Made by a program: the position numbers and the translations under genes
Part shown: one piece after another, positions 51,930-54,496 of the stretch
Layout of the letters: the number at the start of each line of letters is the position of its first letter
Position numbering within the stretch: the stretch's first letter is position 1
Sequence record: PZ445424.1
Strand: one strand, 5' to 3'
Source: a phage
DNA length: 60,094 bases
The notes under the pieces: generated by a model
The model's input: the letters and a program-made list of their open reading frames with translations, nothing else
Told to the model about the DNA's origin: nothing
Database searches by the model: none

Positions 51930-52142
51930 TCACTTAATTTGTACCAAATCGTATTCTTTGTAAATTTCGCTAATGTACATATCGAACTGACCCATTAAGA
52001 AGATTTCGGCCTCCTCCCAGCTTGGGGCAGATACATAACCAGCTATTTTACCGGACGCGAGTTCCACTAATTTGAATTCCATGATGCAACCCTTAATGTG
52101 GTTAAGCAGTATTGCTTTGTTGAAGTAATAATAGCCTTGCAT
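51930..52142 (-). CDS. Hypothetical protein
   Basis: 70 aa ORF; first gene of the - strand block next to the divergent intergenic region. Confidence 0.4.
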   Translation of the reverse strand: MQGYYYFNKAILLNHIKGCIMEFKLVELASGKIAGYVSAPSWEEAEIFLMGQFDMYISEIYKEYDLVQIK

Positions 52143-52408
52143 CGTGATATTGAATAGGCCAAAAGTGCTATTTTAGATCTATTTCGTATCTATAGTTGCG
52201 CACATGCAGCTACGTAAAAATTTAGCGCGAACAATACTGCAGACAATATAGATTTTGTGTGCGTCTTCCATAGTGCAGATAACGTCTATTATGTTAAATA
52301 GCTAAGTTGTTGATTTATGGTATGCCCTGCAATGCATTGGATAGTTAAGTGGTCTAAGTTATTGTTTTAAAAGGAGTTAAAATTTTGCTGTCTGCCAGCT
52401 GTAAAACG

Positions 52409-52429
52409 TTATGTCATTTACTGACATAA
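52409..52429. promoter_or_regulatory. Perfect palindrome TTATGTCA-TTTAC-TGACATAA in divergent intergenic region (candidate operator)
   Basis: 8-bp arms, 5-nt spacer, within the ~600-bp non-coding region separating - and + strand blocks. Confidence 0.4.
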
Positions 52430-52759
52430 AATGTTGTCACCGAAATAGCACGTTTGGCCTAGACACAGATCAGGTCATGCGGTACTATATAGTCAAAGGA
52501 AAGGGAAGCAGAAGTTGCAAAGTACCAATCCCCGAGTAGTAAAGGTTAGGGAAAGCTGAATAGCTAAAGTACCTAACAGGTAGTCGGAAGGTGAATCGTC
52601 CGGATGAAAAAGGCCGGCAAGTGTTGAGACAAGGGCACGTTGAGTAACTCCCGAACAGGGGGTCTCCAAGACACCTTCTCCGGTCCTGCGGGATCCGGGA
52701 CTTTCCGGGACTACCAACCAAAGAAGCGACAAAATAGTAGACAAAGAGAGGTAGGTATC

Positions 52760-52903
52760 ATGACACGCAAATACACGCTTACACGCGCACAGCACGCGCT
52801 ATTATTGCAGGTCATGCGCATGGAGTACGAAGAGACTACATGGGCGCAGGCTATGCAGACAGGGCGTGAGTTCTACGCGCAACTAATAGCACAAAATGCC
52901 TAG
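52760..52903 (+). CDS. Hypothetical small protein
   Basis: Start refined to ATG 52760 (RBS GAGAGG); 47 aa. Confidence 0.35.
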   Translation: MTRKYTLTRAQHALLLQVMRMEYEETTWAQAMQTGREFYAQLIAQNA

Positions 52904-52961
52904 ACAACATGATCGGTCTGGTGGATACTACACACATCAACCAAACAACGGGGTAAACAAA

Positions 52962-53189
52962 ATGCGTAGTTTCAAATGTGTAAGCGTAAATGCTACTGGT
53001 AACGGTCTGTTCACAGCAGGTAATGTATATGACTTCAACATGGAAAGTTATAAAGACACAACGCTTACAGGTGTAATGTTCGGTGGCGCTCGTGTCGTTC
53101 GCTGCCATTTAAACAAGAACACGGAAAATGAATATACCCTTATCAGTCGCTACACGGGCGAGCCGTTAGCTGTGTTCCATGCAGCTTAA
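52962..53189 (+). CDS. Hypothetical protein
   Basis: Start taken at ATG 52962; 75 aa. Confidence 0.4.
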   Translation: MRSFKCVSVNATGNGLFTAGNVYDFNMESYKDTTLTGVMFGGARVVRCHLNKNTENEYTLISRYTGEPLAVFHAA

Positions 53190-53217
53190 GCTATAACGCA
53201 CACAGCGCCACGCTAGC

Positions 53218-53254
53218 GAGCTAATGCACATAGGCAATGGTAATGCATTAGCTC
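53218..53254. repeat. Perfect 11-bp inverted repeat GAGCTAATGCA / TGCATTAGCTC with 15-nt loop
   Basis: Read directly from sequence in the intergenic region upstream of the second HNH gene. Confidence 0.5.
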
Positions 53255-53265
53255 GGGCGAAACAG

Positions 53266-53318
53266 GCGCACAGCGTCGCGCACAGCTCGCACAGCGCACA
53301 CAGACCCACACAGGCCCA
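53266..53318. repeat. Imperfect tandem repeats of GCGCACAGC (about 5 copies)
   Basis: gcgcacagc gtc gcgcacagc tcgcacagc gcacacagac ccacacaggcc; an additional copy at 53197-53210. Confidence 0.5.
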
Positions 53319-53419
53319 GCCGTGCAACCCGACCCATCCTTTTCCAGGTACTTGGAGTGCTGGGGAGTGCCCTGTCCATCCTGATAGTAAGTCCTTGTCT
53401 AAATCTCACCTGTCACATA

Positions 53420-53432
53420 CCCCCCCCCCCCC
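53420..53432. repeat. Homopolymeric poly(C) tract, 13 nt
   Basis: 13 consecutive C in intergenic DNA about 100 nt upstream of the HNH endonuclease gene. Confidence 0.6.
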
Positions 53433-53530
53433 ACCTACCATAAAAAGTGACCCTTAGGAGTTTCACGCTTTCTATATACTGGGTTTAGTGCTAAAATATA
53501 GGTGATGTAAACTTGATCAGAGGCATTGAA

Positions 53531-54004
53531 ATGAACTGGAATAACATATTTGAATACAGGGATGGTGTTCTGTATTGGAAGGTGAGTAGACGATGTATAA
53601 ACGCAGGAGACAGAGCTGGATACGTTCAAGAGGACGGATACACGAGAATAGCATTTGAAGGCAAGCAATACCTGCGTCACCGAATAGTGTGGTTAATGCA
53701 CGGAAGAACTATTCCGGAAGGTATGGAAATTGACCACATTGACCATGACCGCCAAAATGACCGAATTGAAAATTTACGTTTAGTTACTGCTGTAGTAAAC
53801 TGTCAAAATAAAGGAAAATATATCAGTAACACAAGCGGCGTTACTGGTGTAAGCTGGGACAGAAAGAATTTAAAATGGTTTGTAACTATAAGAGTCAATA
53901 AAAAGAATGTATTTTTAGGTCGTTTTGACAAATTTGATGAAGCAGTTAAGGTACGAAAGGAAGCGGAATTGCTGTATAATTTCCACGAAAACCACGGTAA
54001 ATGA
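53531..54004 (+). CDS. HNH homing endonuclease with AP2-type domain (paralog of 50459-50941)
   Basis: Start refined to ATG 53531; motifs EGMEIDHIDH...NDRIENLRLV and SGVTGVSWDRK shared with the - strand paralog. Confidence 0.8.
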   Translation: MNWNNIFEYRDGVLYWKVSRRCINAGDRAGYVQEDGYTRIAFEGKQYLRHRIVWLMHGRTIPEGMEIDHIDHDRQNDRIENLRLVTAVVNCQNKGKYISNTSGVTGVSWDRKNLKWFVTIRVNKKNVFLGRFDKFDEAVKVRKEAELLYNFHENHGK

Positions 54005-54023
54005 TGGTTAAGCGGAGGAAATT

Positions 54024-54209
54024 GTGAGACTTGGACCTTATCTTGGTTTCTATGGTCGTGCTTTTTGGAATGATGAAACAAACAGGTTTGAAGGTTGGCT
54101 AATTACACCAGATCGTTTTACATTTCACAGTGTGAAAGAGAAGAACATCGTTCTTAATTTTCAAAAATGTGTCACTAAATATGTAGAGGAGCAAGAAGAA
54201 TGCGTGTAG
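54024..54209 (+). CDS. Hypothetical protein
   Basis: 61 aa ORF, non-ATG start in ORF track. Confidence 0.3.
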   Translation: MRLGPYLGFYGRAFWNDETNRFEGWLITPDRFTFHSVKEKNIVLNFQKCVTKYVEEQEECV

Positions 54210-54496
54210 AAGAAATTGTTGAAGGTAAAGAGTACCGTTTGCTAACCGATATCGGTGCTGTAGGCTATACTCCGGACGGTGCAGCTTGTTTTAATGTCTT
54301 ACCGCAAGCGGCAATTGTCACAGTTAATAAGGTTGTGACAAATTTATACACTACTTCGCCTGACGGCAATTGGCCACATGCTGTTATTGTCACCTTCGGT
54401 AAAGATGGTTATGTTGATCTTGAAGATGACGAAAATGACGCTTATGAAGTAAGTTATACCGGACTTGTAAGTCCTAATTTCCTGGAGGAAGTGTAA
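54200..54496 (+). CDS. Hypothetical acidic protein
   Basis: 98 aa ORF with RBS GGAGCAAG. Confidence 0.4.
   Translation: MRVEEIVEGKEYRLLTDIGAVGYTPDGAACFNVLPQAAIVTVNKVVTNLYTTSPDGNWPHAVIVTFGKDGYVDLEDDENDAYEVSYTGLVSPNFLEEV

Follow-up and report, generated by a model that had tools for sequence, protein, structure and literature searches.

The genome of Escherichia phage WildeMaa carries a run of 13 cytosines in non-coding DNA (positions 53420-53432, + strand; G13 on the - strand), and this run is found at that length in none of the related sequences to which it was compared. We estimate at roughly 60% the probability that the tract is a real and neutral slipped-strand expansion, private to WildeMaa and without demonstrable regulatory output.

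The window, i.e. the whole stretch of 60,094 nt that was analysed, was identified by megablast as Escherichia phage WildeMaa (Bas23 of the BASEL collection; Queuovirinae, Seuratvirus; MZ501112.1). It is 100% identical to this record over positions 1-25000 and from 35100 to about 59560. Position 1 of the window is position 536 of MZ501112.1, the window beginning at the ATG of terL and the GenBank record at terS. The lengths of the two versions (60,094 versus 60,090) differ by 4 nt, and the sole difference seen between them is a 4-nt 'CATA', present at 53416-53419 of the window, at the 5' edge of the tract. Given this difference and the rotation from terS to terL, the window is therefore a revised or independently processed version of the WildeMaa genome.

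Structural genes occupy the + strand from 1 to ~22.5 kb and are followed by a long block of replication and metabolism genes on the - strand, which extends to ~52.1 kb. A block of small early genes lies on the + strand from ~52.6 kb onward. The tract sits in this last region, in a gap of 341 nt between an early gene encoding 97 aa (52896-53189, + strand), for which no family match was found in Pfam or PHROG, and a gene encoding an HNH endonuclease, which starts at 53531.

The tract and its counterparts in related phages

Direct reading of the sequence and a run-length census both give exactly 13 C at 53420-53432, as stated by the first-pass annotation, and the C13 run is also present in MZ501112.1. 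On the + strand, the tract and its immediate flanks read CTGTCACATA-CCCCCCCCCCCCC-ACCTACC, and the wider context is CTAAATCTCACCTGTCACATA-C13-ACCTACCATAAAAAGTGACCC. The rarity that had been claimed for such a run is borne out by the census of all 60,094 bp (44.3% GC): C13 is the sole homopolymer longer than 6 nt, the next-longest runs reaching 5 nt for C and 6 nt for G, A and T. A first-order chain fed with the run table of the census (P(C|C) about 0.20, P(G|G) about 0.22) predicts that about 1e-4 runs of at least 13 C or G would occur by chance in the window. Hence, C13 is not a compositional accident; something generated the tract, either slippage or an artefact. No C7 or G7 run was found in the other 30 loci compared, WildeMaa's own record apart.

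A mechanical ORF of 77 aa (53224-53457, + strand) runs through the tract, which would then be read as PPPPP. In GenBank, it is annotated as a CDS (bas23_0080, 'hypothetical protein'; MZ501112.1 53759-53974, L001 1825-2040) that is very probably spurious. It has no Pfam or PHROG match, and no gene with this exact product is on record in the contig collection. Equivalent ORFs in relatives differ in length and show frameshifts or stops: the reading frame is frameshifted or stopped in OddieOddie, SD04, SA80RD, slur01 and SeppeHuegi, with 1-nt indels in OddieOddie and SD04. Furthermore, the variable columns are distributed among the codon phases as 17/15/17, with no third-position excess. Since relatives carry frameshifts or stops, since variation is flat across codon phases and since family matches are absent, we rejected the coding reading and do not consider this ORF to be a gene. 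The ORF thus has no coding signature, and the intergenic position previously assigned to the tract holds. In KurtStettler, a CDS of 171 aa is annotated over the same non-coding DNA.

The presence of an HNH gene downstream was confirmed as well, 98 nt separating the tract from its ATG at 53531. This gene (53531-54004, + strand) encodes a homing endonuclease of 157 aa that belongs to the HNH_3 family (PF13392, E=8.8e-18; phrog_99, 1.1e-64) and has, besides HNH_3, a weak AP2-like match. It is labelled 'putative homing endonuclease' in MZ501112.1.

The comparison with related genomes, which the first-pass annotation had called for, included 33 sequences: 17 GenBank Seuratvirus genomes, six metagenome or IMG/VR contigs retrieved with the core of the conserved module described below, and 10 ENA or Logan contigs obtained via exact-protein look-ups. 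When the tract flanks were used as query against IMG/VR and metagenomes, they gave nothing or chance matches. In relatives, the orthologous site reads ACCCCACCTACC. Of the 33 sequences, 30 have C4 there, KS_A8 has C6 and CAjan reads CCAC, and phiG7 lacks the site; C13 is found in WildeMaa only. Therefore, a single isolate has the long tract, which is not conserved. Its absence from related genomes is one of the two observations that the first-pass annotation had named jointly as refuting its reading. The long tract corresponds to the C4 of the module-end motif ACCCCACCTACC, lengthened by 9. Its last four C form with the following ACCTACC the motif CCCCACCTACC (53429-53439, + strand), which is intact despite the expansion. 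This motif is nearly invariant in the alignments and in metagenome, ENA and Logan contigs, and the window has one perfect copy of it.

Three of these relatives (Skure, ENA scaffold VALL22-1_25 and one Logan contig) encode an HNH protein identical to the 157-aa protein of WildeMaa and read CACATA-CCCC-ACCTACC at the site. SA80RD, which encodes a related, non-identical HNH protein, also has C4. Hence, there is no link between the long tract and the endonuclease. Moreover, the segment located between TCAC(A/T)T and CCCCACCTACC measures 0, 21 or 52 nt among relatives. This indicates that the spacing 5' of the motif is not constrained and that 9 extra bases are within the natural length variation of the locus.

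Probable slippage expansion or possible assembly artefact

According to the scenario that we favor, slipped-strand mispairing of replicating DNA would have extended the conserved C4 (the first four bases of CCCCACCTACC) to about C13 in the lineage leading to a single plaque-purified isolate, WildeMaa/Bas23. The expansion would have been tolerated because it affects non-coding DNA, because the length of the spacer is unconstrained and because the conserved motif is intact. The slippage-proneness attributed to so long a run by the first-pass annotation is upheld as a general point, high-frequency slippage being associated with homopolymers of about 7-8 nt or more, a length that C13 exceeds. The 13-nt tract would now be length-unstable within phage stocks, and the deposited '13' would be only an estimate.

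The C6 of KS_A8 (L018, around 770-790) is the only other length variant at the site. It is an intermediate step between C4 and a longer run and suggests that the site has some intrinsic tendency to slip. Against the expansion, C4 would have had to pass through several rare early steps before reaching C13, and runs of C7 to C12 are absent from relatives. Furthermore, the strict conservation of C4 (30/33) could mean that the site is under constraint, in which case a 9-nt insertion would be less obviously neutral.

Alternatively, the true sequence might be CACATA-CCCC-ACCTACC, as in Skure, the extra C deriving from two-colour poly-G read tails that were built in at a contig join or during circularisation over a short C run. 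We consider such a sequencing or assembly artefact a serious possibility, albeit a rather unlikely one. The two-colour NextSeq platform is prone to poly-G/C problems. BASEL genomes were obtained on such an instrument (Illumina NextSeq 550); the Geneious assembler gave circular contigs, which were then re-linearised, a procedure by which a join can end up inside the genome (PMC8594841). Assembly ambiguities were settled by PCR and Sanger sequencing (PMC8594841). In addition, none of the 33 related sequences shares the tract, and it is exactly there that the two genome versions show their single observed difference, MZ501112.1 reading TCA+C13 and the window TCACATA+C13. This 4-nt disagreement at the edge of the tract is compatible with a contig join and indicates that the locus is hard to resolve. 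It is this disagreement, together with the sequencing and assembly history, that gives the artefact its weight.

On the other hand, the count of 13 C is the same in MZ501112.1 and in the window. In the latter, the CACATA conserved in the family is restored and the tract is nevertheless present, which gives the impression that the locus was looked at again; since all relatives have CAC(A/T)T at this place, the version of the window is the more credible one at the 5' edge. Poly-G tails normally follow the adapter, and correct downstream genome sequence does not come after them. By contrast, both flanks of the WildeMaa tract are orthologous to those of relatives, from which we infer that it differs from read-end poly-G artefacts. 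No other poly-G/C run was seen in the WildeMaa assembly or in the parts read of three other BASEL Seuratvirus genomes produced by the same method, and the C6 of KS_A8 is genuine slippage at this very site. Exact-protein look-ups in the ENA/Logan/NCBI contig index revealed no independent assembly of WildeMaa, and the BASEL follow-up paper makes no mention of re-sequencing. A genuine expansion by slippage is thus the reading that we retain.

A genome terminus or cos site at the tract locus was also considered, the record of SLUR75 (LR025197.1) ending at window ~53263. This record has apparently the same 127 bp at both ends (window 53137-53263), which looks like an overlap that the assembler left untrimmed on a circular contig and does not suggest a physical terminus. 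As SLUR75 only has this 127-bp terminal overlap and other records break elsewhere, the terminus reading was rejected; no terminus data for Seuratvirus were found in the literature.

The tract matters mainly for the data quality of the Bas23/WildeMaa reference. The length of 53416-53432 should be treated as uncertain in variant calling of escape mutants, primer design and synthetic rebooting. If real, the tract would provide a natural reporter of polymerase slippage in a phage with 7-deazaguanine in its DNA.

The host module, its leaders and possible roles of the tract

The tract is located at the 3' end of a conserved non-coding Seuratvirus module of ~247 nt (53193-53439, + strand), the stop codon of the 97-aa gene lying 3 nt before it. 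Identity of the module is 91-96% in most of the 36 matching phage records, and metagenome contigs also carry it. Its 5' edge, ATAACGCACACAGC, is fixed behind at least four unrelated upstream sequences. Its GC content is 58-66% versus a genome average of 44%, and its GC skew is negative in an otherwise G-skewed operon. The module includes a perfect 12-bp inverted repeat, CGAGCTAATGCA / TGCATTAGCTCG, with a 15-nt loop (53217-53255, + strand). At one stem position, 11 sequences have U-G and five have C-G, an alternation that, on comparative grounds, would fit stem pairing in the + strand RNA. No T-run follows this repeat, and no terminator was called there. Further downstream are five iteron-like CACAG(C) repeats with a GCGCACAGC core, spaced by 9-12 nt (53266-53313, + strand); six of the 74 CACAG copies of the window are found within 150 bp at the module.

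A known RNA family was searched for in 52000-54300 and this candidate was dismissed, no Rfam match being obtained there (a chance snoRNA match was obtained elsewhere). The RNA fold of the module is no better than that of shuffled sequences (z-score 0.2), and its consensus fold has one pair with a compensatory change. A dispersed regulatory motif was likewise discarded, CCACCTACC not being enriched in the genome. As candidate functions, the module might load Rho or terminate transcription, or it might bind proteins at iteron-like sites. It is viewed here as a more promising object for follow-up than the tract itself.

A second allele of the module is found in Skure (L002, 1189-1564). Its two ends (~58 nt on the 5' side, ~55 nt on the 3' side) are kept, and an unrelated segment of ~250 nt replaces the centre that carries the CACAG repeats, i.e. 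a cassette-like exchange inside a non-coding element. This allele is also present in GottfriedDienst, SHIN8, Dru_SM1, SLUR25/63, SA126VB and ECP2304.

The motif ACCCCACCTA(CC) is nearly invariant across the 33 sequences and usually present twice (copies at 53429-53439 of the window, 1738-1759 of CAjan L003, and 1454-1469 and 1547-1562 of Skure L002). The distance to the second, upstream copy (CCACCTAC) is 21 nt in most relatives, against 93 nt in Skure. Two leader alleles begin directly 3' of ACCTACC: type 1 (TTCTTTTTGAATATA...), which is the commoner, and type 2 (ATAAAAAGTGACCC...), which is carried by WildeMaa, Skure, SA80RD, SD04, L033, L035 and L041. Judging from its position at the start of these alternative leaders, ACCCCACCTA(CC) may be a recombination linker or a binding site. 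In WildeMaa, the type 2 leader is AT-rich and extends from the motif to the start codon of the HNH gene (53440-53530, + strand), in place of the type 1 leader of most relatives. In SD04 (L020, 885-1380), it precedes a different small ORF, without HNH.

The first-pass annotation proposed that the tract could be a phase-variable element affecting the downstream operon. This proposal is not supported, since no real ORF contains the tract, promoter hexamers do not flank it and its long form is not kept in relatives. Neither a sigma-70-like hexamer pair nor an intrinsic terminator was found bracketing the tract, and no promoter of the type 2 leader (53440-53530) exceeds the scan threshold. The nearest pair, a weak one that may be promoter-like (TTTAGT-18-TAAACT, 53484-53513), starts 51 nt downstream of the tract, so the length of the tract cannot set a -35/-10 spacing. 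Phase variation through a promoter spacer was therefore rejected.

The same annotation also evoked a recombination or nuclease hot spot. A mosaic junction does exist 7 nt 3' of the tract, where type 1 and type 2 leaders diverge; the part of the claim that does not stand is the long tract as its cause, since genomes with C4 have the junction equally. Beyond this junction, the HNH insertion replaced the 5' end of a small gene (phrog_24875; 54024-54209, + strand; GTG start at 54024; positions 23-83 of the 85 of the profile matched), removing its first ~14-22 codons and deleting the resident leader. Homology to CAjan resumes at window position 54000 (CAjan L003 1975), inside the CAjan gene 1933-2184. 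The regions compared here were 53440-54023 of the window, 1760-1974 of CAjan L003 and 885-1380 of SD04 L020.

The vicinity of the endonuclease gene might also point to a repair scar: repeated nicking or cleavage by the HNH protein near the cassette boundary, followed by error-prone repair, would have made the run, which could possibly shield the genome that carries it from self-cleavage. Indeed, the point where the two leader types diverge is 7 nt away from the tract and the HNH start 98 nt away, and a 21-nt segment was also lost from the left flank of HNH-carrying genomes. However, Skure, SA80RD, the ENA scaffold and the Logan contig encode the same or a near-identical HNH protein and yet have C4, so the long tract does not co-occur with the endonuclease gene across genomes. 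In addition, the type 2 leader also occurs without HNH, in SD04. Among all the explanations, we consider this one the least probable.

Poly(C) is the classical strongest activator of the Rho ATPase. The tract might be viewed as a hypermutable element of the early-operon leader, in which the C run would strengthen rut-like Rho loading or the G13 of the template strand would form a G-quadruplex. Read-through into the HNH gene and the early genes beyond it would then be adjusted by the number of C in the run. Nowhere else on the + strand of the genome does C exceed G as strongly as in 53245-53404 when the tract is present (C minus G of 27 per 100 nt, z 3.7). With C4, the module is still C-rich (C minus G of +19 to +21, z 2.7-3.4) in an operon that is otherwise G-skewed. 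As in rut sites, C exceeds G over at least 70-80 nt of transcript, the GC skew being -0.24 to -0.46 over 53250-53499. The module is also not more structured than shuffled sequence, which is expected of a rut site, although it has the perfect 12-bp hairpin at its 5' end. By contrast, the skew with C4 is not exceptional genome-wide, and about 24% G, as counted in the module, is a high value for a rut site. C4 is enough for all relatives, among them the three with the identical HNH protein; thus, the long tract is not a selected feature of the family. Folding in silico does not reveal any length-dependent switch either: refolding of the RNA according to tract length was dismissed, the MFE staying between -88 and -85 kcal/mol across C4, C6, C9, C13 and C16. 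Hence, a hypermutable leader element is very unlikely.

A Rho-loading role of the module itself would be conceivable and could not depend on the long tract, which every relative lacks. As for the tract acting as a hypermutable length-tuner, via Rho loading or via a G-quadruplex or R-loop of the G13 strand, we hold this to be, if anything, still more improbable than the element just described. If true, WildeMaa populations would hedge their level of read-through, low or high, into the gene of the homing endonuclease and the downstream host-takeover genes, and a virulent coliphage would possess a contingency locus in non-coding DNA. Even taken together, the functional and scar readings are improbable. 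The tract would be of biological interest only if its length were shown to alter early transcription.

Comparison with known systems

Poly-G tracts of Campylobacter phages are mononucleotide contingency loci. Mononucleotide repeats are also contingency loci in agt of T2 and rIIA of T4, and BASEL genomes were scanned bioinformatically with a minimum homopolymer length of 6 nt (Gomez, Barrick & Waters 2025 preprint, PMC12633550). Like these loci, the WildeMaa tract is slippable, belongs to a BASEL coliphage and likely originates from polymerase slippage, from which heterogeneity in length would be expected. However, the contingency loci described in that preprint are located in ORFs and are switched on and off by frameshift (PMC12633550), whereas the WildeMaa tract is non-coding. 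Unlike contingency loci, it also lies outside any promoter spacer and its long form is not conserved. Furthermore, it is far longer than the 6-8-nt runs typical of coliphages.

The tract also shares properties with the poly-G artefacts of two-colour Illumina instruments (NextSeq/NovaSeq): the genome was sequenced on a NextSeq 550, one strand reads G13 and the records disagree at the edge. However, such artefacts sit at the ends of reads or contigs, whereas the WildeMaa tract has orthologous flanks and survives in two versions of the genome.

Like rut sites such as lambda tR1, the WildeMaa stretch is C-rich, G-poorer and located on the sense transcript between early genes; it may also be weakly structured. 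Unlike them, the module is relatively high in G and the long C run is absent from all relatives; for this latter reason, the long run cannot be the rut mechanism of the family.

Poly(C) tracts are also known from the 5' UTR of cardioviruses and aphthoviruses, which are RNA viruses; these tracts measure 60-400 nt and are conserved as a class feature. As in WildeMaa, a C tract is found there in a non-coding viral leader, and its length varies between isolates of these viruses; this is a resemblance only, with no homology or shared mechanism. A role as a genetic switch not being supported, the WildeMaa tract is most likely an ordinary homopolymer expansion private to one isolate, or possibly an assembly error.
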